A stretch of 63,920 nucleotides of DNA, filler included, from Collodictyon triciliatum (taxonomy: Eukaryota): NCBI GenBank assembly GCA_043381765.1. It is 21 parts of 21 records of this genome, joined end to end, with 100 filler letters (N's around TTAATTAATTAA, not from the genome) between each part and the next. Parts side by side here need not be neighbours in the genome. Positions count along the whole stretch, not along the records: positions 6,346 to 9,415 come from JBHJMP010007836.1; positions 9,516 to 12,584 come from JBHJMP010007837.1; positions 12,685 to 15,757 come from JBHJMP010007838.1; positions 15,858 to 18,926 come from JBHJMP010007839.1; positions 19,027 to 22,094 come from JBHJMP010007840.1; positions 22,195 to 25,261 come from JBHJMP010007841.1; positions 25,362 to 27,635 come from JBHJMP010007842.1; positions 27,736 to 30,800 come from JBHJMP010007844.1; 13 more parts are not named here. One strand, written 5' to 3'. The notes below the pieces were generated by a model, which had not been told where the DNA came from, did no database searches, and was given only the letters and a program-made list of their open reading frames with translations. This document shows positions 3,074 through 61,953 of the stretch, piece after piece. Position numbers and translations under genes: made by a program. Position 1 is the stretch's first letter, and each line of letters opens with the position of its first letter.

Positions 3074-3173
3074 NNNNNNNNNNNNNNNNNNNNNNNNNNN
3101 NNNNNNNNNNNNNNNNNTTAATTAATTAANNNNNNNNNNNNNNNNNNNNNNNNNNNNNNNNNNNNNNNNNNNN
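3074..3173. other. Artificial contig linker (44N-TTAATTAATTAA-44N); first of 20 copies
   Basis: The same 100-bp six-frame-stop linker recurs at 6246, 9416, 12585, 15758, 18927, 22095, 25262, 27636, 30801, 33966, 37129, 40291, 43452, 46613, 49772, 52931, 56090, 59248 and 62405. True scaffold gaps are at 32420-32876 and 38338-38836. Confidence 0.98.
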
Positions 3174-5990: not shown

Positions 5991-6176
5991 TTTTTCATAA
6001 ACCGAGGCCTCTTGTCTGGTGCTTTTGAAGGCCGGTTAATTGGTATTATAAGAGGCTTCCTTCTGTCTTCTATTTTTTGTTTTTCGTTTCTTGTTTTATT
6101 TTTGCTTCTTTGTTTCGTTTTGTTTTGTTATTTGTTTTGTTTTTTGTTTAGTTTTGTTTTGTTTTGTTTTGTTTTG

Positions 6177-6245
<69 letters not shown>

Positions 6246-6359
6246 NNNNNNNNNNNNNNNNNNNNNNNNNNNNNNNNNNNNNNNNNNNNTTAATTAATTA
6301 ANNNNNNNNNNNNNNNNNNNNNNNNNNNNNNNNNNNNNNNNNNNNATAAAGTTATAAAC

Positions 6360-7664
6360 CTGAAATACTGACCAATGATGTATGTTTGGAAAATATGCAA
6401 TATTTGTAGATTCGGGAGATTGAAAAAGTCTGGAATATCTCCTAGGCCATAATATATGTAATAAAGTAACTGTAATGAGCCAAAATCTTCACATTTCTAC
6501 GTATTTTATATCAATATAGAATTTCAAACATTTGAACTAAACCATATGAAAAAAGTCTTACCTGTAATTATGCTACTTAATCCTATGCACATCAGGATAA
6601 GCTCCAGTATTTTTGAAAAATCAGGTATTGTACCCTCCAATGAATTTCCTTCTATTAATATAATTTGTGCATTTGGAATCCCAGAAAAATCTGGAATAGA
6701 ACCGGTAATCTTGTTCAAAGAGACACCCAAGTATATAAGAAACGGTGGGTTAAAGTCGTGAAGCGCCCCGTAAATAAAATTGTTGTACATTTTCACAGAC
6801 AAGAGATGCGAGAAATATTCCAAGGTATTTGATACTTCCCCTATATCTCCAGATAGATTGTTTCCAACCAACTTTATTTCAATTAATGGACAAGAGTTTT
6901 CCTATTTATTAAAATTTTCAAATATATAGTATTTTATGATCGAATTTTTTCCTTTATTCTATTCAAAAAAATTTATGATCGAAAATAAAATAAAATAAAA
7001 TATTGGACACTTAAAATTATATCTACATACATCCACTTTGAATCGAATAAAGGAAAAAAAATATCTACATACATCCAACTGAGTTTTTGAACACTTTGAG
7101 TGACAGTGTATCCCAAACCAATAACATATAGGAGTTTCATGACTTTTGCAACCAGAATAATTGAACCAAAAGTCTTCATTCAGGACTCTACAAAGCTCAT
7201 GCAATAATTCAAAAATTTTTTTCGAGGTTTCGGATATTTCTTTTACCCAGCTTGCGTCAGTGCTGTAAGTTAGGTCATTGGCTCCGATAAACTTCCTTTC
7301 AAATGAATTTTTCCATTCACCTTTGTCATGAAAATCATATTTACTAAGACTATCATGATTAAAATCATATGGGATAAATACTTTGTAGTATTTTTTAAAC
7401 AATCCAGTAAATATCATTACCTTCTTGACCTAAGTGGTCATCATTCTCATCGGAAGAAAGTAGACATGAATCCATGTAAAAATCCAGCAAAATTTTGAAT
7501 GCCTCGTCTGTATTCATGGACATGATTTCATTGCGACTCAGCAAGCATCTGAGACATGAGTTGCCACTGGACGAAGATAAACCAGTTTTTATATTGAAAA
7601 TCATAAAAACTTTGTGCTTTCTTAAATTATCTTTACCTATCATCCCTGGACAATATATGACCAA
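6360..7664 (-). CDS. Extracellular-type (plant-like) LRR protein, partial, multi-exon
   Basis: N-cap ICYWFGIHC, then LxxNxLxGxIP repeats (GNNLSGDI, LNKITGSIPDFS, GNSLEGTIPDFS, GDIPDF); runs into the contig end. Confidence 0.75.
6933..6983 (-). mobile_element. Micro-retroposon copy (6945-6971) with 12-bp TSD TTTATGATCGAA
   Basis: Reverse complement is TTTGAATAGAATAAAGGAAAAAA, between direct repeats at 6933-6944 and 6972-6983. Confidence 0.75.
7019..7077 (+). mobile_element. Micro-retroposon copy (7036-7060) with perfect 17-bp TSD ATATCTACATACATCCA
   Basis: CTTTGAATCGAATAAAGGAAAAAAA between identical direct repeats at 7019-7035 and 7061-7077. Confidence 0.9.
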
Positions 7665-9039
7665 AAAGAGACAAAAGAATCAATATGTTCCAAATATTCA
7701 ATTTTCTCATAAAGGGGAAGCGTTGGCCAAGACAATATCTATATTTGGCTAGGCATTACTATGCATAAATGATTTTTCTTGTGTGTTTCATTCTGTTTGA
7801 CCCCACATTTTTTGATTTATCATGTGTCAAAGTTTTAGCAATTTTCAATGCAGATTAGAATTATAATTGCATATTATTATATGAAATTCTTTTCAAAAGC
7901 AAAAGTTATTGGTGAAAAAATCAGAAAGAGGATTATTGCAAAAGAAGGTTCTCGACATTTGGTTCACTTAATATTTGATAAAAAGCTCTTATCCTCTCGA
8001 TTTATTTATTATTCTTGATGATTTCAATAGTTATAAATATTCTCCTCTTAAAAATGTGATAAATTAAATTATTTGAAATCAAAAGAAAAGAAATTTTCAT
8101 TTTTCAGTGCGCCACGCTTTTTTTAGATTTATCTTGTATTTAGTAAATTATATTGGAAATATGAAAAATTAATGCTTACATCACCTGCTAAAATTCTTAG
8201 AACAAAAACTACGGGATGTTATAAAAGAGCTTAAATTATCCATATAAAACATATAGTACGCCTCTAATTTTTAAAAAGGTCACAACTTGAATATTATATT
8301 ATCATATATTTCAGAGAAGTAAAACCTCAATTATTTCATGATTATCCTATGATTTGAATTGGAATAGAACTTGGCACTTTTTTCATCAAAATATCTTTAG
8401 AATAGCTTAACTTAGGTACTTAAATTGGTGTAATGAATTATTTACTGAATGGCTCAATATTTTGAGAGTGATAAGAAAATTATGGAATGAATATTTTTTC
8501 GTTACAAATCATTTAGACTAATAATATAAACTATAGATGAAATAATGAATCATTATTCTATAATCTATAATTTCTCTCCTTGCATACAGACATATCGCAT
8601 GACTTTTTTTTAAAAAAAAGGGAGCGTACACCATGTTTAGCAGTTAGCAGATGCTATTCACAAAACTATGCAGATTTCAGATGAAATTCAGAGGAATTTA
8701 TATCACAAAGCTGCATTGAAATATTCAATACAGAAGGATGAGAATTGTAAGGAAAAAAGATTTTTCAAAATTTATAAAGCATAGTGGTATTGTATTTTCA
8801 CAAGAATTTCTAATAAGGTATATACATTTAATTATTCGCCTTCGTAATTATCTATTCATATAAGGTGGTATGTCGATGTTGGCAAATCAGAATATGAAAA
8901 GTGTGGTTGATAGACTAGATAATTCAGCTTTCGGGTGCATGCAAGCCAATTTCTAGGTATTTTATGACATTTTTCCGATGCAAATAAAAAACATATTTCA
9001 CTTCATATTTGAATTCAGTGTTTCGGGTTGGCAACAACA

Positions 9040-9300
9040 TACCTATTTTAGAGCCAGTGAACAAGGGGGACTTATGTATATTCTAAGGAGAATTTAGTTG
9101 CTCTTCGAAAAATAAAAAATAAATAGAGCGAAATCTATGATGATGGTTGCTAAACTTCGCCTAGGCTGTCTAATACGGGCTTAACACTCAGGCAAAAGGC
9201 GAAAGCACAGAAATCTATTCCTGATAATCGACTACTTCACCTCCACCCAGGCCCGGGTAGTGTTCATGGAGACGAAGGCTAGCGAGTAAATGTCAAAACA
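9040..9300 (+). mobile_element. Degenerate 3' end of the L1/Tx1-like LINE
   Basis: attcctgataatcgactacttcacctccacccag..gtagtgttcatggagacgaaggctagcga aligns by eye with the 3' segments at ~24960-25045 and ~28100-28175. Confidence 0.6.
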
Positions 9301-10111
9301 CGCTATTGAGCGAACTTATAGAGAGAATTCTATAGAAAAGAAAAGTCAAGGACTTTAGCGAATATATAGAGAAATAAAACGCATCAACAAAGGTCCGTCC
9401 TAAACCTTCCTGAGCNNNNNNNNNNNNNNNNNNNNNNNNNNNNNNNNNNNNNNNNNNNNTTAATTAATTAANNNNNNNNNNNNNNNNNNNNNNNNNNNNN
9501 NNNNNNNNNNNNNNNAAAAAAAAAAAAAAAAAAAAAAAAAAACAAAAAACAAAAAACAAAAAAACAAAAAAACAAAAAAAAAACAAAACAAACAATACGA
9601 AAGCTTCAAACTCTCATTATTCAGAAGCGACCCAAAGGTTAGCCAAGTCGCGAGTGTTAGTGTAGCCCTGTCGTCGTATTACATCAGCGCATCACAAGGC
9701 CAAGGTTTTACCCACACTCAGCAGAGCCGAGACGAGAAGGCTTCGAGAATCCCTGCGTGTTTTTTTCTCAGGCCGTCCGTGGCTCTGCCGCAACCCCGCG
9801 TTCTATCGCTTAGCCGGTGGGTGATAACTTCCACAGACTCATACTCGACCTTGAAATGCTTCGAAAGTATTATTAAATAAGTGATTTGTATGGATGTGGA
9901 TTCGCACAAGGCGAAGGTTGTATACTCATACAAATGATTACGATCTATGCTGTTGCTCAAATTAAAATACATTCAACAAAAGCTGAAAGTGTTTTTTTTT
10001 ATATATATATTTATTTTATTTATAGGTGTGTGGTGGCAGTCTTGACGTATTTTCCGTCGTCGCTCCCTCCAAAACCCGATATTCGCCTCTTTGCTTCTAC
10101 TGAGCATTTTA

Positions 10112-11468
10112 TCAGAACTGTAGCTCGACTTGACACTTGTGGAAAACGTAGTCTTGTCGATAAAGTTGCATCACGCCGTCCTTCAAGATGCATCTCCATT
10201 TGTTCCTGGAATGGGTGACCTGTGCCAAAGTGAAGTAGGTTTTTTTTGTTTTTTTTAAAAATAATAATAATAAAATAAAGTAGTTATTTCAGGCGGGATG
10301 ATAATCGCCCTATAAGTTGGAGCCATATATACCCACTCGTATCTAATAAATAAATAAATAAAAAAAAATGAAATAAGAATGAATATATAACGCACACGCT
10401 CGTATTGACACAAGACGAGTTGATAAGTGATGGTTGCATCATCGCTGCTGTTGTCGTAATCAGAGCCTAGCTCTGAGCCTTCATCATCCTCTTGCCGAGC
10501 TGTATTTGCCGAGTTTGAGCCGGCTGACACCAAAGTACCAATTGGTCCACTGTGCAGAGTTGGAGGCCCAGGCAAGGGAGCCAGGGCAGTGGGTTGGGAT
10601 GATACGAAGCTTTGGGACTGAGAATGAACGATGCCCGTTTCATCGTGCAGATGCTGCTGCCCCATGTAATGCTGTGCGAGATGTCCGACAGGCATTTGAC
10701 TCTGGTGCGATCTGATTGCCTGCTGTTGTAGCCCACCCTGGTAATGCTCTTGGTGCAATATGTTGTGAGACCCTTGGTTGTGCCCAATCGAGCCTTGTGA
10801 TGGACCGTGCAAATACTGATGTCTGTCTCGAGTGGGGTGCGATGATTGGTATCCACCTTTCTCTTCATCGTCGTCTTCGTCGTCATCATCATCATCATCA
10901 TCATCATCGTCATCGTCGTCATTAGTATCCCCAACCCCTCCAGCTCCGTACTGATGATGCCCCTTGGCCTGGTTGTGATAGGTTTGCTGGTGAGAACGAG
11001 GCTGGTCGTGCTTCCCATCGACCTGTGGAACTTCAATTGAAGCCGTTTTTTTGTTTTTGTTTTTTGGTTTCGAATAGGGAGGTGAGTAAGAAATCATAAT
11101 CTTAATGATAATAATCATACCAATATTTAACTTTTATCATTCAAGAGAAAATGTTTTTTTTTTTTGTTACAGGAGCAGTTAAAAGAAAAGGAAAATGATA
11201 TGTGTGATAATATTCTCACTATTATCTAATATCGCGGAGGTATTTTTGTCCCTTTTGCTGGATACACAGATGCTTTGCACATAATTTGGTTCAATTTCAT
11301 CCCCAGCGCCATCATTCTGTGGAAGATGATGTCCTCCTCTGGAGAAGCCATGCTGCATTTATCAAATAGAACAATTATTCAGACTTTCATTAAATCGATT
11401 CAGCGAAGATGAATGGTATCGATAGTGCGAACCATGACTTCGTCAAGGATATATAAAGAAAAAGAAGG

Positions 11469-11500
<32 letters not shown>

Positions 11501-12327
11501 AGGAACAAATCATGCAAATTTAATAAAATTCAATTGACGGTACGCATAATTGACAAAGAACTGATAAAAATGCAAATATAATTATGACAATTTAAGCATC
11601 AATTTTGATGATGAAGCAGGAACATACATATCCCCGACTTTGATCCTCTTCATTAGATGAAACCCAAGTCGGAGCGTCCTGTTATCGAAGAACAGTGGAT
11701 GGACAAATTGTCAGAAATATAATATTTTCATACGAAATATTCGAGAAAGGAAAAATAAAGTATGCCCGAACCATGTAAGGGGCAGGTCGGCCCCAACCAG
11801 CGTCATCATGCGCTCGGTATTGAGGTTGATGTTGATTCTGATACATCGGAGGTCTTTGCCCTTGATGAAACTGTGGGTGAGTTTGGCTGGGGGAGAAAGA
11901 GTATGGCGCAGGAGTGGAGAATGAGAATTGCTGAGTGTGATGAAGCTGCGGTGGTGGGTGATGACGCATTTGGGGCTGGGATGATGACTGTGATGGTTGG
12001 TGATGGTGATGCTGTTGCTGCTGGTATTGGCTATTCTCAGCATGCCGCGATTGCTTTATATCGAGGAAGTTGATAGCCATAAGATAATACCAAACAAGAA
12101 TGTGACTAGATAATTATTATTTTTTATTTCTCGATAACCGTTTTTCTTCTTTTCTTTCATTTATTCATTTAGAAATAAAAAAAGATGGATATATAGTTTC
12201 TTTGACTGATACAGACCCATTCCAACTGGTGGGAGGGATGGTACACGTGCGAGTCGGAGTTTTCATCATCAGACTGATCGTTTTCCTCTTCTTCCACGGG
12301 ATTCATGTGAAGCTTTTTTTGCCACAG
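10112..12327 (-). CDS. GTF2A1: Transcription initiation factor IIA large subunit (alpha/beta), 5'-truncated, multi-exon
   Basis: LWQKKL (N-terminal helix end), Q/H-rich linker, PQNDG and PQVDG motifs, acidic tract, LVLCQYER|VTHSRNKWRCILKDGVMQLYRQDYVFHKCQVELQF*. Confidence 0.9.
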
Positions 12328-12510
12328 CTAATGCGCATCATAGAGAGGATTAAACAACATTCATATGAAATATCAGAAGGATGGGTTGGCGATTTATGGT
12401 GTGAGCACTGCATATTCTTTTAAGGGACTCATCATTTTAAATTATTCATATGGCTTTTCAGAATAAGGCATGTAATTATACCAACAAAGTAGGGGGGGGG
12501 GGGGGGGGGG

Positions 12511-12545
<35 letters not shown>

Positions 12546-12939
12546 TTTTTTTTTAAAAAAAAAAAAAAAAAAAAAAAGAGAGAANNNNNNNNNNNNNNNN
12601 NNNNNNNNNNNNNNNNNNNNNNNNNNNNTTAATTAATTAANNNNNNNNNNNNNNNNNNNNNNNNNNNNNNNNNNNNNNNNNNNNAAAACAAAAAAACAAA
12701 AAAACAAAAAAAAAACAAAAAAACAAAAAAACAAAAAAACAAAAAAACAAAAAAACAAAAACAAAAAAACAAAAAAAAAACTGAGACCATGACAAACCGC
12801 AGAAGCCTTTCGAGCTGCTTATTATTGACCGAAGAAAATTGTTAAACTTCTACCTCCTGCTTTCAGTGCATACATTAAAACATGTCTCTTTTGGTTTCGC
12901 AAAAACAGAAGACTACTCAAGGCTTCGGCGATCTACAAC

Positions 12940-53379: not shown

Positions 53380-53699
53380 AAAAAAAATATTATCAATACA
53401 TACAAATTTAAAATATTTTTGTTGTATTCTGCCTGATCATCACGGTTCACAAATAAGTAAATTTATGAAAAATTGAATATCTAATCCAATTAATGAATTT
53501 GCTTATATAGTTCAAATTTACCTGATTTTAACTTAGATTATTTGAGTATTGGAAATAATTTTGAACTTACTACGATGATGGTTGATTATCTGATAATGCA
53601 CCAAAAATAATATCGACATCTTGATTTTTCTTGATCAAAAGGGAGACTCTTTCACAAATCAATAATTGGTTCTAGAAAACTTTTGCCTACGTAAATGTC

Positions 53700-53801
<102 letters not shown>

Positions 53802-53984
53802 GATACTAAAAGTCTTTTTATACTAGGTCTGTGTGAAACATTTTTCCTACGATATCATGATATAATTAAATCCTAAATTTAACAAAAATAAGAGAAAATG
53901 ATACATTCTGAACAGTGGTAATGAAATTAAACTATGAATATTTACCTCTAATAGAAAAATCAACTTAATTATAAACTGGATAGA

Positions 53985-56089
53985 ATGAATTTTAGGCAAC
54001 AGATATCCAGAAAGGCCTTACATGTGTTAGGTCAGTAGATTTTACAAAAAATGTGAATTTATTCTAATTTTTTTTATTTTAGGATTGATAATTTTCAATC
54101 AATTTCTTAATGCCAAGGGGCAAGATGTATCAATTTATACAATCAGTGGCCCCGGAAATCTATTGAGTTTGACCTTTACCCCTGACGGTTCTAACATTGT
54201 CTCTGGAAGTGATGATCGCAACGTCAGAATATGGAATCTTTCTGATGGAAATTTGATTCGCACATTATCTGGTCATTGGAATGAGGTTTACAGTGTCGCT
54301 GTATCTCCTGATGGTTACATGATTATATCTGGGAGTTACAGTTCTATAAGTCAATGGAATATCTCTGATGGAAGCTTGATTCGCTCATTGAATGGTCATT
54401 GGAACTGGATTTATAGTCTTGTCATTACCCCTGACGGTTCAAAATTCTTATCTGCAGGCGTAGATCGCACAATTAAAATTTGGAATCTTGCTGAAGGAGT
54501 GGTAATTCTAACATTGACCGGTCATACCCATTATGTTAACAGCCTTGCTGTTACTCGAGATGGATCGAAAGTGGTCTCTGGAAGTAGCGATAATACAATA
54601 AAAATTTGGAATATCACATACGGAACTTTAGTCAGCACTTTGACTGGTCATACTAACATAGTAAATAGTGTTGCTGTCACTCCTGATAGTTCGAAAGTGG
54701 TTTCTGGAAGTAGCGATAATACAATAAAAATTTGGAATATCACAGACGGAGCTTTAGTCAGCACTTTGACTGGTCATACTAACATAGTTAATAGTGTTGC
54801 CGTCACTCCCGATAACTCAAAGATAGTTTCTGGAAGCAGTGACACAACAGTTAAAGTTTGGAATCTTTTGGACGGAATTTTAGTCGGGAATCTGACCAGT
54901 CATTCTAATTGGGTTTACAGAGTTGCTGTTACTCCTGATGGCTCAAAAATCGTCTCTGGAGGCAGTGATACAACGATGAAAATATGGAATTTGGCACAAA
55001 GAGCTCTGGATCGCATCATAAATGGGCATACTAATCAGGTTTGCAGTGTTTTTGTTACTCCTGACGGGTCGAAAATTATTTCAGGAGGTGGAGATTCAAG
55101 CATCAGAGTCTGGAATATTACAGATGGAAATATGATTCGCATTATAAATGGTCACTCTAAAGAAGTTTTCAGTGTTGTAGTTACTATTGATGGCTCAAAA
55201 ATTATTTCAGGAGGTGGAGATTCAAGCATCAGAGTCTGGAATATTACAGATGGAAATATAATTCACACGATTTATGGTCATAATGATCGTGTTTCTAGTG
55301 TCTCTGTTACTCCTGACGGATCAAAAATTATTTCTGGTAGCTTTGATAGAACAATCAAAATATGGGGTATGTTGGATGGATTATTGTTAAGCACATTGAA
55401 GGGGCATTCCTATTATGTGTCAAGTGTTACTGTTACGCTAGATGGCTCAGTACTTATTTCTGGTAGTTACGATAATAGCATCAAAATATGGAACCTTTCT
55501 AGTGGAACGTTGATTCGCACATTGAATGAAAATGATGGCTACATTACTAATCTTGCCGTATCTCCTGATGGCTTAAGGCTTGTTTCTAGCACTTTCGATG
55601 CCTCCTTAAAAATATGGAATTTATCCGATGGAGCTTTAATTTGCACCTTGAATGGTCACACTGGTCCTATTTACAGCATTTCTATTAATACAGACGGCTC
55701 GAAAATTGTATCTGGGAGTCAGGATACCACAATTAAAATATGGGAAACTTCCCAGTATCTATCCAAACCCCAATCCCAATCCCAATCTCAATCACAATCA
55801 CAATCACAATCACAATCACAATCACAATCACAGTCTCAGTCTCAGTCTCAGTCTCAGTCCCAGTCCCACTCCCAGTCCCAGTCCCAGTCCCAGTCCCATT
55901 CTCAGTCCCAATCCCAATCCCAATCCCAATCCCAATCCCAATCCCAATCTCAGTCCCAATCCCAGTCTCAGTCTCAGTCTCAGTCCCAGTCTCAGTCCCA
56001 ATCCCAATCCCAATCCCAATCCCAATCCCAATCCCAATCCCAATCCCAATCCCAATCCCAATCCCAATCTCAGTCCCAATCTCAGTCCC
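53985..56089 (+). CDS. Signal peptide + 13 WD40 repeats + (SQ)n stalk; 3'-truncated
   Basis: Exon 1 53985-54030 [15 protein letters not shown], intron 54031-54082, then [30 protein letters not shown] repeats and a long Ser-Gln hexamer repeat. Confidence 0.9.
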
Positions 56090-56471
56090 NNNNNNNNNNN
56101 NNNNNNNNNNNNNNNNNNNNNNNNNNNNNNNNNTTAATTAATTAANNNNNNNNNNNNNNNNNNNNNNNNNNNNNNNNNNNNNNNNNNNNCAAGTTCTTAG
56201 AATCAGTCCAAAGAACCACCGTGGACCGCTCCAGGATCGTTCTCAGAAACCTCCCCTGAACCCTTCGTCCAGGGGATATTTAACGAGTCCGCCGACTCGT
56301 TAATAGGTTGAGAATCATAAAGCAAGCGTGTAGCAGAATAAAAGAACATCCCCTTACACGATGCCAGATTTCATTGTTTAGAAAAATTGAACAGACATCA
56401 AGGTTTGATAAATATTTTCTGTCCACTGATTTTTTTAACTGTTGAGTTATTTCGTAATTTAAAACTTTTTA

Positions 56472-57468
56472 TTATGTGTGCCTATAATGTGGGCATAATT
56501 CGTCTACTGATTGTGGCTTATTATTCACCCAAAGCATGAATGAATCAATAGATTTAATAAGAGGATCAATCATTATATCTTTGGTATACTTTGTAAATAT
56601 CCACTTGGAAGGTCCGTTGAAATGTACTATATAAGGTCTTGTTCCCGTCGGTATGTGTTCAAGATATCCAAGTTTATTGGCTACCCATGGGCAATGAGGG
56701 ACACAAGCTTCATCTATAAGGTACATATCCATGAAAAATTCTACGCAATGATCCAGAACAATACCGTATTTCCCAGAAAAGTACGCTTCGTGAAAAAATT
56801 GTTGATCGTCCTGGAAATATCTACGAGTGGCAATAATCTCTTGACATAGAGCTTCTAGCATATCCTTTAGCACCCAGGCATATGCTACGTAAGTTCCAGA
56901 ATTTATAAACCTAGGCCTGTAGGAAAAAGTACGTGTATTATGATTTTGGGAATACTAATCCTAAAAAACTATGACATAAAAGATGTATTAGATGATAATT
57001 TACCCTCTTTCGAAACATCCATTATGCGAATGGAATAGATCATAGGCTTTCTCACAGCTTCCATCAGGAAAAGCAGCTCCAGGTACTAGCTTACGAATGA
57101 TTGAATCTGGCATACAGTTATGCTCAACCGATATGACCATATTATATTTTTTGGACTTGAATAACTTGACTAAACCATTTACATCATTATTGAAGATAAC
57201 ATCATGACAGTCAGAAAAGATTATGACTGTTTCATTCGAATATTTTTTGACAGCATCTCTCATAATGAAGAGTTTGTCTCCATTTCTAACCCACTCTTTT
57301 CCAAATCCCAATACATGAACAAACGCATTAAAACTAATTGCACTTCTGATGAAATCGCAAAAATGGGCCTTACTGTTGGAACATACAGAAATTACTACAG
57401 CCCCAGCTTTTTCCAAATTGCTGTTATAATGAACAACAGCCTCTCCTAAGTCGTCAGCTATGTATTTA
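56472..57468 (-). CDS. PLOD (procollagen lysyl hydroxylase) N-terminal-type glycosyltransferase domain protein
   Basis: VLGFG.EW..GDK, IFSDCHDVIF, EHNC.PD, RFINSGTYV, DDQ, IVLD, HFNGPSK motifs; the upstream exon (~57522-57680) appears frameshifted. Confidence 0.8.
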
Positions 57469-58679
57469 CCTTTACAAAAATAAGAAACATTCTGTTAATT
57501 TTAAAACTATGTATCGAACCTAGTAATCGTGGTAGAACTCGTTCATTTTGATTGAATTTAAATACTTATAGTTGCAAGTAATAATACACAAGGTGAACCA
57601 ACTGACCAAATGGAAATTCCAAGAGTTTATTTTAAACAACTTGTTTGTTCTTCGGATAGCTTTCCCCGATATTTTCATTCAAAAAGTAGCTCGATTGTTT
57701 TTTAGTGAAACGGTGAACAACGCAGCTGCTTAGTATCTGCAAACAATGTTATTTCTAATGCATCACTTATTAGTACTTCTGAAATTTTGATAACGAAATG
57801 TGGCATTGATGCGCCCAAGCAAGTTTCCCTTAGATTGGTTGTTCGAATGGCTACATATACTTTTTCCTATGGTAACGCACCAATGAGTTATGATGTGTTT
57901 TTGATATTAACTTTTGCCCAGACTTTAACTGTGCTAATATACAGCTTTCAATAATACTGCATTTTTAATGGTTTTCACAGAAACATTTTTCAACATTTCG
58001 AAATTTCACAACTTTGAGTTCGGAAGAATAAATACTATGCTGACATCTCAATTCTAAACGGAATTCTCCACTATTAAATACATGCTAAATTTAGCATCCA
58101 CCCTACCTTTGAGCTAGCCAACCCGCCCTTTCTCTCCGATCCCTTGCCTTACCACCTCCTCCCACACCCTTTCACCTCAGAAAACAGAATATTTCTTTTT
58201 GTTCACTACGTTCTGGTGCGCTAGAAATAAGGAAACACTGGGTCAAACAACAGCGCATTTTTGAACTTACACAACATATTTTAGAAAACCTACCTTTGCC
58301 TGTCCGTCTATCCGTCCTTTGTCTTTGAACTCAATCCATATCGATGACAACCTAGCTAGGATTCGAAAATGAGTACGTTCTACATGTACTACCGGACAAG
58401 ACCTGTGATCATAGCGTCGGATCTGTTGAGCGGCCTGGTCCCTGCCCACCCCCGCAAAGAGGCGGCAAAGCCCTTCGCCCACTCACCCATTACCGCACCC
58501 ACAGGGCCGCCGCTATCGACTTCCTGCATCCATGTCCATACCATCCAGCTCTGTGGCATCAATTTTTTTATTCTATAAGTTTTAGCTGTTGAGCCCGTCT
58601 CAACAATCTTTCATTCAACCATCAGGCAAGTAGTTCCAAAGTAGGTGAGGATGTGTGGGAGATAGAAAAAAAACAGGGA

Positions 58680-59247
58680 TAAAAATAAGATAAAAGGGAA
58701 AAGAGAGGTCCTTGAGGCTTGATAAGAGACGCATGGATTTATTTTGGGGACGCGTGATAGTGTCCTGCGAGTATGAGAAAGAAAAAAGGGGCGGGTGATA
58801 TTGATTGGATGGAGGAAGGGGAATACTGCTTTGATGGCGCAAGCTGTCGAAAAGGATGGTGAAAAGAGAAGTGAGGTTCGTTTCATAAGCACTAGGTCGA
58901 GTGCAAAGACGACTTCTCTGCATGGTTGACTCACCTCCTACCAGACCGTATTCGGGTCTTTTCAGTGGGGTTATCGAAGGGACTTCTCCCTCTTGCTTGC
59001 AAAGGAAACCTATGGCTATAAGCTTCCACTCCCTGGTGTCTCTCTCAGCCAAGGTCGAGAATTTTGGCTTTGATACCGCAGGTTTTGCAAGTGGATTTGG
59101 TCAGCTATTCAGGACTCGCGTGTCAAGAGGTGTTAGTTGCCTGCAGTATCCCGGCTCAGGGAGTCTGTTAATGGGTTCGTTTGGGGTAGGGTATGGGTAT
59201 GATGGTCGGTATACCCATAGAGGAGGTCAGGACTGATGCGAGGTATC
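58680..59247 (+). mobile_element. Heavily decayed LINE APE-endonuclease region
   Basis: Relics in the expected order: EVLEA**ETH (QETH), KKGRVILI (KKRGVAILI), KDGEKR (DKEGR), frameshifted GDF; many stops. Confidence 0.4.
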
Positions 59248-59347
59248 NNNNNNNNNNNNNNNNNNNNNNNNNNNNNNNNNNNNNNNNNNNNTTAATTAAT
59301 TAANNNNNNNNNNNNNNNNNNNNNNNNNNNNNNNNNNNNNNNNNNNN

Positions 59348-61953
59348 TGAACCAGTAATATTGTTTGTTGTTCCAGCTTGACACGATATGCATGATGTCT
59401 GGCCTTCTTTATCGTTCCAGGTGCCCTGAGGACACTTATTGCAAGATAGATTTCCATATGAACCGGGGCTGGGGTTTAATGTCCCCTTCGGGCATGGAAT
59501 ACATGAAGAAGGGCTTTTAGGTACTTTCTCTTGCTGATAGAAACCTGAAGGACATACAATACACGATGACCTATCATGTGAGCTAAAACTTCCATTATAG
59601 CAATTTAAACATGAATTCACGCCAAATAATCCTGTTTCATTGTTGAATGTGCCTACAGGACATGAATCACATTTATCTTTTGATTGGGTACCGTAAGTTC
59701 CTTTTGGACATTTAATGCAAGAAGAGATATTAATTGATGCAAAATCAGGATTGAATGTTCCATCTCTGCAAGTCTTGCATTGAACTTGGCTAACTTCATC
59801 ATTGTAAGTTCCCGGTTTACATATATAGCAATTAATATTACTTGTTTTATTACTGTAAGTACCTGAGGGGCATAATAAGCAACTCGCTTGTCCGGTTAAT
59901 TGATTGTATGTTCCAGCTGCACATGAAATACACGCACTGGAGCTTGTCGAGCCGATGGATGGATTGTATGTTCCTGAGGGGCATAATAAGCAACTTGCTT
60001 GTCCAGTTAATTGATTGTATGTTCCAGCTGCGCATGAAATACAAGCGCTGGAGCTCGTAGAGCCGATGGATGGATTGTATGTTCCAGCTGCACATGAAAT
60101 ACACGCACTGGAGCTTGTTGAGCCGATGGATGGGTTGTATGTTCCTGAGGTGCATAATGAGCAAATCGCTTGTCCAGTTAATTGATTGTATGTTCCAGCT
60201 GCACATGAAATACAAGCGCTGGAGCTCGTAGAGCCGATTGATGGATTGTACGTTCCAGCTGCACATGAAATACACGCACTGGAGCTTGTTGAGCCTATGG
60301 ATGGATTGTATGTTCCAGCTGCGCATGATGTGCAATTTGATTGTCCAGTTAATTGGTTGTATGTTCCAGCTGCGCATGAAATACAAGCACTGGAGCTCGT
60401 AGAGCCGACGGATGGGTTGTATGTTCCAGCTGCGCATGAAATACAAGCGCTGGAGCTCGTAGAGCCGATTGATGGATTGTATGTTCCAGCGGCACATGAA
60501 ATACACGCACTGGAGCTTGTTGAGCCGATGGATGGATTGTATGTTCCAGCGGCACATGAAAGACAAGAACTGGAGCTTGTTGAGCCGATGGATGGGTTGT
60601 ATGTTCCTGAGGTGCATAATGAGCAACTCGCTTGTCCAGTTAATTGATTGTATGTTCCAGCTGCACATGAAAGACAAGCACTGGAGCTTGTTGAGCCTAT
60701 GGATGGGTTGTATGTTCCTGAGGGGCATAATGAGCAGCTTGCTCGTCCAGTTAATTGATTGTATGTTCCAGCTGCGCATGATATACAACTTGCTTGTCCA
60801 GATGATGGGTTGTAAGTTCCTGGGGGGCAAAATGAGCAGGTTCTAGATTCTACGTCATAAAAGAAACCTGCTTCACAAACGCCCCAAATTTTGATTGTGT
60901 TATCTTTGCTTCCTGAAACAATATTTGAACCATCAGCTGTAACAAAAACACTGCGCACATGGTCAGTATGGCCAGACAATGTTCGAATCAAACTTCCATT
61001 TGAGAGATTCCAGATTTTGATTGTGTTATCAGCACTTCCCGAAACAACTTTTGATCCATCTGGGGTGATTCTTAAACTCCAAATATGACCTGTATGTCCA
61101 TTTAATGTAAGAATATGAGCTCCATCAGATAGATTCCAGATTTTTATTGTTAAATCATGACTTCCCGATAGTAATTTTGAACCATCCGGGGTCATAGCAA
61201 CAACATTCACTGGGTTGCTATGACTAATTAAAGTTTGAATCAATCTTCCATCAGTTAGATTCCATATCTTGATCGTCGTGTCGACACTCCCTGAGAGGAT
61301 TTTCGATCCATCCGTATTAACTAGAACACTCCGTACAGGTTGTGAGTGGCCGTTTAACGTATGTATAAGGGCTCCATCAGATAGATTCAAAATTTTTATT
61401 ATTTTCTCATAACATCCGTAAATAATTTTTGATCCATCAGGAGTAATTGCGACGCTATTTACCTGATCAATATTGAGGCTCAACGTGCGAATAGAAGCAT
61501 CACCAGATATATTCCAAATTTTGATAGTCTTATCCCAGCTTCCAGAGACTATTTTTGAGTCATCAGGGGTAATTGCAACACCACGAACGACGTTAGTATG
61601 GCCAGATAATGTTCGAATCAAACTTCCATCTGAGAGACTCCAGATTTTGATTGTGTTATCAGCACTTCCCGAAACAATTTTTGAACCATCAGGAGTAACA
61701 ACAATACTATGTACCGAACCATCGTGGCCAGACAACGTTTGTATCAGATAGTTTTGTCCCCTAGCATGAAGTAAACGACAGCAAATAATTATTCCTATGG
61801 AAAAAAGTGATTAATTTTTCTCATAATATCGTCAAATATTTTTCCTTTATTTGATACAAGGAATGGTTTTGTCAAACATTTATATTAATTACTAAAATCT
61901 TGAAAATTTCATTTACCCAATAACAAGGTATTTACCACGCTCAGATATTTCAT
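59348..61953 (-). CDS. Signal peptide + 7 WD40 repeats + long Cys-rich (ephrin-receptor-like/GCC2-GCC3) repeat stalk; 3'-truncated
   Basis: Exon 1 61953-61917 MKYLSVVNTLLL, intron 61916-61795, then GIIICCRLLHARG-QN, 7 WD40 repeats and C..C..GTYN repeats of 17 and 20 aa. Confidence 0.92.
61831..61881 (-). mobile_element. Old micro-retroposon copy in the WD40 gene intron
   Basis: TTTCCTTTATTTGATACAAG between GTCAAATATTT and GTCAAACATTT. Confidence 0.5.

Follow-up and report, generated by a model that had tools for sequence, protein, structure and literature searches.

The 63,920-nucleotide stretch of DNA from Collodictyon triciliatum (assembly GCA_043381765.1) analysed here, called the window throughout, contains a family of A-tailed repeats of only 25-27 bp. 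These units are very probably retrocopies of the last 18 nt of LINE-A plus a short oligo(A), made by target-primed reverse transcription (TPRT) with the endonuclease and reverse transcriptase (RT) of LINE-A itself. LINE-A is the name given here to a long interspersed nuclear element (LINE), the non-LTR retrotransposon (one lacking long terminal repeats) whose extreme 3' end is the same 18-mer followed by an A-tail. Insertion by TPRT, as proposed in a preceding sequence-only reading of the window, is indicated by the A-tail, by variable target-site duplications (TSDs) of 12-18 bp that abut the insert and by a T|AT nick site. As in LINE retrocopies, the A-tail is followed by target sequence, the TSDs are variable and specific to each locus, and the unit is colinear with the 3' end of an element that encodes an RT. 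The evidence base comprises ~61 kb of sequence, one metagenome contig (L008) and metagenome contigs from three data sets (X1-X3) that were placed on the contig at 6346-9415.

A short A-tailed repeat is present in ten copies

The window consists of ~21 unrelated contigs of ~3.07 kb, arranged in order of falling length (3073 to 3057 bp) and joined by spacers of the form N44-TTAATTAATTAA-N44 (e.g. 3074-3173), so that distances across spacers are meaningless. Scanning for the 18-mer CTTTGAATCGAATAAAGG with up to 2 mismatches gave 7 matches, compared to a mean of 0.01 in 100 dinucleotide shuffles, none of which reached 7. For the 13-nt core, 14 matches were found where 3.48 were expected. A looser scan (≤3 mismatches, or ≤5 with an A-rich tail) returned 11 sites, ten of them credible, while twenty block shuffles gave 0-2 sites each. 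The site at 25514, with 5 mismatches, looks like chance and was rejected. When the window was searched for A-tailed inserts between exact direct repeats of at least 10 bp, four of the seven pairs obtained were micro-copies of the 18-mer; the other three enclose "inserts" of 206-272 bp and look like chance. All copies listed in the sequence-only reading were found where it had placed them, and, the window being ~21 separate contigs, they do lie on unrelated contigs as it had said. The basis for its term high-copy is 10 copies in ~61 kb, where the contigs are small and probably rich in repeats, together with one metagenome. The ten copies are as follows.

7019-7077, plus strand: micro-copy 1; TSD ATATCTACATACATCCA, 17 bp, perfect (7019-7035 / 7061-7077); insert 7036-7060 of 25 bp, the 18-nt LINE-A tail with 0 mismatches plus A7
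31959-32016, plus strand: micro-copy 2; perfect 16-bp TSD (31959-31974 / 32001-32016); insert of 26 bp, with an extra 5' T at 31975, core at 31976-31993 and A7
6933-6983, minus strand: micro-copy 3; perfect 12-bp TSD (TTCGATCATAAA on the element strand; 6933-6944 / 6972-6983); insert 6945-6971 of 27 bp, TTT + TTTTGAATAGAATAAAGG + A6
53321-53379, plus strand: micro-copy 4; 18-bp TSD with 2 mismatches (53321/53362); core CTTCGAATCGAATAAAGA at 53339-53356; A5-6
46097-46155, plus strand: micro-copy 5; 18-bp TSD with 2 mismatches (46097/46138); core CCCCAAATCGAATAAAGG at 46115-46132; A5-6
61831-61881, minus strand: micro-copy 6, decayed; core CCTTGTATCAAATAAAGG at 61844-61861; 11-bp TSD with 1 mismatch
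40558-40604, minus strand: micro-copy 7, decayed; core CTTTGAATCGAATAAACC at 40578-40595; degenerate tail AGCGAAAAATT; 9-bp TSD with 1 mismatch
48541-48558, minus strand: tail match of 17/18 (CTTTGAATCGAATAAAGT), lacking A-tail, TSD and LINE-A upstream sequence
31632-31649, plus strand: degenerate copy GTTTGAATCGAATTAAAA, followed by GAAAAT; no TSD found
44818-44991, plus strand: 5'-truncated LINE-A 3' end of 174 bp, with the 18-mer at 44962-44979 and an A-rich tail; no clear TSD

Micro-copies 4 and 5 are older insertions. The core of micro-copy 5 is 18 nt long too, and its 5' four bases are changed from TTTG to CCCA. In micro-copy 6 the core is preceded on its 5' side by 9 unexplained nt (AAAACCATT).

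Some copies lie close together. Micro-copies 1 and 3 (6951-7053) are independent insertions with perfect TSDs in opposite orientation, 68 bp apart, and the copies at 31632 and 31976 are separated by 327 bp. Such pairs may mark local insertion hot spots in AT-rich DNA. The tail match at 48541-48558 is situated 36 bp past the stop codon of a 503-amino-acid open reading frame (ORF) at 46994-48505 (plus strand), for which no Pfam match was obtained.

Flanking duplications and the insertion site point to target-primed reverse transcription

A TSD score of at least 10 was reached by five of the ten copies, but by only 4 of 3000 randomly placed sites with matching geometry, from which tandem repeats had been excluded. 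An earlier null set that included tandem repeats was unusable, since 50 of its 1500 sites scored at least 10. The excess of direct repeats over random controls, on which the sequence-only reading had made its case depend, is thereby confirmed. In the five scoring copies the TSDs measure 12-18 bp, differ from locus to locus and abut the insert. The TSD of micro-copy 6, scoring 2.5, is not significant alone, and that of micro-copy 7 is weak (score 0). At 46097 a direct repeat was indeed present, although its length had to be corrected: the 15 bp with 1 mismatch noted before are the inner part of an 18-bp repeat with 2 mismatches (46097-46155). At 31632, 44962 and 48541, which had been described as having no clear TSD, none was found.

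The (T/C)T|AT insertion site ascribed to four forward copies was recovered, and a T|AT bottom-strand nick site is found at 5 of the 7 sites that could be mapped. The A-tails are short, A5-A8 in 6 copies, also where the TSD is perfect; the tail is decayed in copy 40578 and absent from 48541. Microhomology at the 5' junction is limited to 0-2 nt. Extra bases at this junction are lacking in 7036, 53339 and 40578, whereas 31976 has a T, 6951 has TTT and 61844 has nine; two of the three copies with perfect TSDs thus carry an extra T or TTT.

If double-strand breaks had captured a piece of LINE-tail cDNA or RNA as repair filler, independently of an endonuclease, the product could look like copy 48541, which has neither tail nor TSD, or like the 9 filler bases of copy 61844. 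However, break capture gives deletions or no TSD, and here 12-18 bp TSDs flank five copies and the T|AT nick site is common to five of the seven mapped sites. We therefore regard this origin as highly improbable.

The repeat is the 3' terminus of a LINE

When public metagenome contigs were scanned for the 18-mer, 35 loci were obtained. Only one of them, L008, continues into an A-tail and LINE sequence; the other 34 have unrelated flanks, some are mutual duplicates, none combines an A-tail with LINE sequence, and they look like chance matches. Likewise, viral contigs gave no match to the 21-mer including the A-tail, and its 3 matches in genomes of prokaryotes are due to chance. On its minus strand, L008 contains 1046 bases of LINE-A, in the order ORF2 C-terminal reading frame (with one frameshift), stop codon, C-rich untranslated region (UTR) of ~95 nt, 18-mer and A10. 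The first part of the frame matches Pfam zf-RVT with 32.4 bits (cut-off 27.5). The terminus reads ...CTCGCTACA followed directly by CTTTGAATCGAATAAAGG(A)10, and the sequence in front of the 18-mer and A10 ends in ...GGCATAACCTCGCTACA.

The sequence upstream of the 18-mer in L008 is also the one that precedes the window copy at 44962. By blastn, 44818-44991 is 93.1% identical to L008 over 174 bp (E 2e-69), and it holds the last ORF2 codons, the ~95-nt 3' UTR, the 18-mer and an A-rich tail; tblastn gave 86% identity over 22 amino acids. Longer elements ending in the 25-mer, which the sequence-only reading had advised looking for, thus exist both in the window and in L008. Of the two origins that it had left open, a stereotyped 5' truncation of a LINE is favoured by the identity of the 18-mer and A-tail with the L008 3' terminus and by the 174-bp window copy. 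For direct retrotransposition of a small RNA no evidence was seen, the only gathering-level RNA match in the window being a tRNA-Asp at 45513-45584, which coincides with no copy. This tRNA-Asp(GTC) gene lies on the minus strand, ~530 bp from the LINE-A fragment.

A word-indexed homologue search with the L008 ORF found nothing, while an exhaustive profile-free search returned 14 related proteins at E≤1e-3. Four full-length relatives (1226-1275 amino acids), 25-38% identical over the C-terminal 65-180 residues, all contain Exo_endo_phos and RVT_1 domains, and three of the four have a weak, sub-threshold match to zf-RVT. LINE-A itself is seen as a C-terminus only, and we infer from the domain architecture of these relatives that it is a poly(A)-type non-LTR retrotransposon with an apurinic/apyrimidinic (AP) endonuclease and an L1/Tx1-like architecture.

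Nearly all copies end 18 nt from the LINE-A terminus

Sequence upstream of position -18 into LINE-A is present in only one of the ten copies (44818-44991). Correspondingly, a search at ≤3 mismatches located the 17 nt that adjoin the LINE-A 18-mer upstream at a single place in the window, compared to 10 occurrences of the 18-mer tail. The copies 7036, 31976, 53339, 40578 and 48541 begin with the same C at -18, and copy 6951 has a T at this position. A broad, continuous spread of 5' truncation points, which is usual for LINE copies, was not seen in this small sample. Even so, the stereotyped length at -18 is a genuine oddity in a small sample.

The metagenome contigs placed on 6346-9415 bear on this boundary. 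In X3, a subsurface metagenome, six listed contig pieces match only from 7035/7036 to 7063-7069 and continue into unrelated sequence on either side. Summed word depth is 13.4 in the bin of the micro-element compared to 0-6.6 elsewhere on the contig. A further data set thus shows the element to be multi-copy and to have this 5' boundary. From X1 (lake water) and from X2 (freshwater), two pieces of 151 nt each were recovered, with 99-100% identity to unique stretches of the contig; it follows that the organism occurs in nature and that the assembly is sound at those stretches.

A short, uniform, A-tailed oligonucleotide in a fragmented assembly might raise the suspicion of a sequencing adapter or an assembly artefact. 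The copies are, however, diverged from each other, their TSDs have decayed, and none is located at a contig end. In addition, the same sequence ends a LINE in the unrelated assembly that contains L008 and recurs with other flanks in X3. The artefact reading is thereby largely refuted, and its chance of being correct appears negligible.

Ordinary random 5' truncation, with the fixed end as a small-sample accident or an assembly bias, would agree with the fact that 5' truncation is the rule in L1-like elements, and it would accommodate the one longer copy (44818-44991) and the odd 5' junctions of 46115 and 61844. It would hardly produce an identical start base in at least five copies (6951 differs there by a C to T change) or nine short copies of which none carries any of the 17 upstream nt, and the X3 pieces likewise begin at 7035/7036. 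We hold this explanation to be very unlikely.

A uniform 5' end, short and uniform A-tails of 5-8 nt and an excess of micro-copies over longer LINE-A copies of 9 to 1 in the window could also be produced by an independent ultra-short "nano-SINE" (SINE, short interspersed nuclear element), a transcript of ~25 nt from its own master gene or genes that imitates the tail of LINE-A and would be mobilised in trans. However, 18 nt are too short for an RNA polymerase III (Pol III) A/B-box promoter or any small-RNA head, and the sole gathering-level RNA match of the window, the tRNA-Asp, lies at no copy. No candidate master locus was found in the window, where the upstream flanks of all copies are unrelated. 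LINE-A RNA suffices as a source, the unit being colinear with the terminus of LINE-A as far as the A-tail, and this further counts against such a family. A separate short element is thus an unlikely origin.

Proposed course of insertion

According to the TPRT reading, the endonuclease would nick the target at T|AT, and the T-ended primer would pair with the oligo(A). Copying would then cover 18 nt only, and the junction would gain up to three added residues, which read as T on the sense strand. The top strand would be cut 12-18 nt downstream in a staggered second nick, and fill-in would generate the TSD.

Two models may account for the stop at -18. In a run-off model, the template would be a 3'-terminal LINE-A RNA fragment that begins at -18, left by 5'-to-3' decay or cleavage while the protein of the element holds the 3' end; the RT would run off the end of this fragment and sometimes add untemplated residues. 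The chance that this model is correct approaches, but does not reach, an even one. In the block model, the RT would meet a fixed block or stop abortively at -18 while copying full-length RNA, and end-joining would follow; this is plausible as well, though we would sooner expect it to fail. Two young junctions carry extra T residues, and for this reason we lean slightly, and only weakly, towards run-off. Extra junction bases are also known from ordinary truncated LINE insertions.

More tentatively, the fixed product of 18 nt plus oligo(A) might be the commonest outcome of the LINE, its RNA being trimmed or its RT arrested at a set distance from the 3' end, as if the element's protein formed a molecular ruler on its own tail. 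We regard this as doubtful. If it were true, the repeats would form the smallest known family amplified by TPRT, and nature would here display the minimal RNA on which a LINE RT depends for recognition and priming.

Several observations weigh against the proposed origin or limit how far it can be taken. The sample is only ~61 kb in small contigs that may be repeat-rich, and if assemblies break at long LINE-A copies, the ratio of 9 micro-copies to 1 longer copy could be distorted. Among the X1-X3 contigs, none of which bridges an insertion, no empty site was found. Copy 48541 has no tail and no TSD, and copy 46115 may represent a sub-family or instead a truncation at -13 with 5 filler bases. 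As extra bases occur in ordinary insertions too, the junction extras do not separate run-off from block. The LINE clade was read from relatives that are 25-38% identical, in the C-terminus only, where zf-RVT stays below the Pfam cut-off.

No structure that could set the boundary emerged either. A stable hairpin was not found: the minimum free energy (MFE) of the 25-mer is 0, and the UTR folds no better than shuffles (z -1.4 and 0.1). No ribozyme or tRNA-like match (E≤10) was obtained in L008 or in window 44600-45100, novel folds being outside the scope of this search. Two candidates for the cause of the fixed end were rejected, namely a 5-bp stem inside the 18-mer (MFE 0, shuffles fold equally well) and microhomology at the junction (only 0-2 nt).

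Should the stop at -18 hold genome-wide, LINE-A would define a minimal TPRT template of 18 nt plus a few A, and it would offer a simple system in which to study what ends cDNA synthesis, a point not yet settled for the 5' truncation of L1-like elements. Every insertion brings an AATAAA signal and duplicates 12-18 bp, and the sample contains roughly one such site per 6 kb. The entire family would escape repeat maskers whose length requirement exceeds 30-50 bp.

A second LINE family in the window

Another LINE family, LINE-B, is represented by two 5'-truncated copies that are 89.7% identical over 447 bp.

24403-25045, plus strand: LINE-B copy, 5'-truncated; loses homology at 25045
27736-28229, plus strand: LINE-B copy, 5'-truncated; the only one that keeps the tail, ...TTTGAAAGGAAGAAT(A)10, also written ...CAAATTTGAAAGGAAGAAT(A)10

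In its C-terminal region LINE-B has 41-46% protein identity to LINE-A. Six-frame Pfam scans of the LINE-B contigs, with stop codons read as X, gave nothing at E≤0.001. The sequence-only reading had stated that the short repeat differs from the 3' end of the LINE family in the window. Evidently, the family compared there was LINE-B, and the statement is true for LINE-B only, as the copy at ~44962 ends a longer LINE-A fragment. Micro-copies of the LINE-B tail are absent from the window, the sole match being the element itself. The tails of both families share TTTGAA ~15-17 nt ahead of the A-run, a hint that a tail motif may be recognised.

Directly downstream of the first LINE-B fragment, an RT fragment with a YADD active-site motif (...AQYADDTMIFLEDQEDAQRAIEAV...) extends over ~25140-25261 on the plus strand and is cut off by the end of the contig. 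It has the look of a LINE insertion, either nested or adjacent.

Other features of the window

The GC content of the contigs ranges from 26 to 44%, and two contigs have internal N gaps, of 457 bp in 30901-33965 and of 499 bp in 37229-40290. The gene content has an animal-like appearance and includes exons of a PLOD-type glycosyltransferase, two Vps35 exons with 58 bp between them, and long ORFs with WD40 or ephrin-receptor-like repeats. Microsatellites of the (CAAAAAA)n type, with units of 5-8 nt, and long A or T runs are found at many contig ends and once inside a contig:

9516-9590, 12685-12780, 30698-30800, 48950-49060, 6160-6245 and 15713-15757: microsatellites or A/T runs

At contig ends these sequences probably break the assembly, and they may derive from LINE A-tails. 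Further low-complexity sequences are a T83 homopolymer at 26008-26090 and, at the contig end at ~12495-12577, ~15 G followed directly by A33, T9 and A23; these may be real or sequencing artefacts. One contig contains a satellite-like tandem array with units of ~54-58 bp and related dispersed pieces (15858-16560, 16529-16806 and 17098-17360).

Two long intron-free ORFs carry many WD40 repeats and share a 198-bp stretch of 74% identity:

54031-56088, plus strand: WD40 ORF, ending in a (CCCAAT/CCCAGT)n hexamer array at ~55850-56089
59348-61810, minus strand: WD40 ORF, additionally with 15 ephrin-receptor-like repeats

For three other long ORFs of 482-721 amino acids no Pfam match was obtained, and a word-indexed search found no homologue of the 721-amino-acid one:

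28410-30572, minus strand: ORF of 721 amino acids
46994-48502, plus strand: the ORF next to tail match 48541-48558
49874-51319, minus strand: long ORF

Comparison with known systems

The open-access literature covered by the search yielded no description of an 18-nt LINE-tail family, of this motif or of its stereotyped truncation. The copies resemble 5'-truncated TPRT insertions of L1-type elements (AP endonuclease, RT and CCHC) in their A-tail, their variable 12-18 bp TSDs, the T-rich/A nick site and their identity to the 3' end of an RT element. In L1, truncation points are broadly spread. By contrast, nine of the ten copies described here have nothing upstream of -18, most of them share the same start base, and tails of 5-8 A, even where the TSD is perfect, are a further difference from L1-type insertions.

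The copies are not SINEs, because they have no Pol III head, the insert being 18 nt plus tail with no tRNA or Rfam match at any copy. In stringent, tail-dependent LINE/SINE pairs such as UnaL2/UnaSINE1, a short LINE 3' tail is enough for mobilisation. Platy-1 is a short SINE of ~100 bp derived from Alu (PMC4864456). Unlike these pairs and Platy-1, the window unit has no Pol III head, no body and no stable 3' stem-loop, and Platy-1 is about four times longer.

Closer parallels are found among short repeats without such a head. The suffix element of Drosophila is a short dispersed repeat of roughly 265 bp identical to the 3' end of the F-element LINE; it resembles the window unit in being a LINE 3' terminus, but is about ten times longer. 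Maque of Anopheles gambiae, a ~60-bp "extremely short interspersed repetitive element" that Tu is said to have described in 2001, reportedly has the hallmarks of non-LTR retroposition and no small-RNA head. By this description, Maque and the window unit are both ultra-short interspersed retroposons that lack a small-RNA head. The window unit, with 18 nt plus tail, is less than half as long, and the parent LINE terminus was identified directly.

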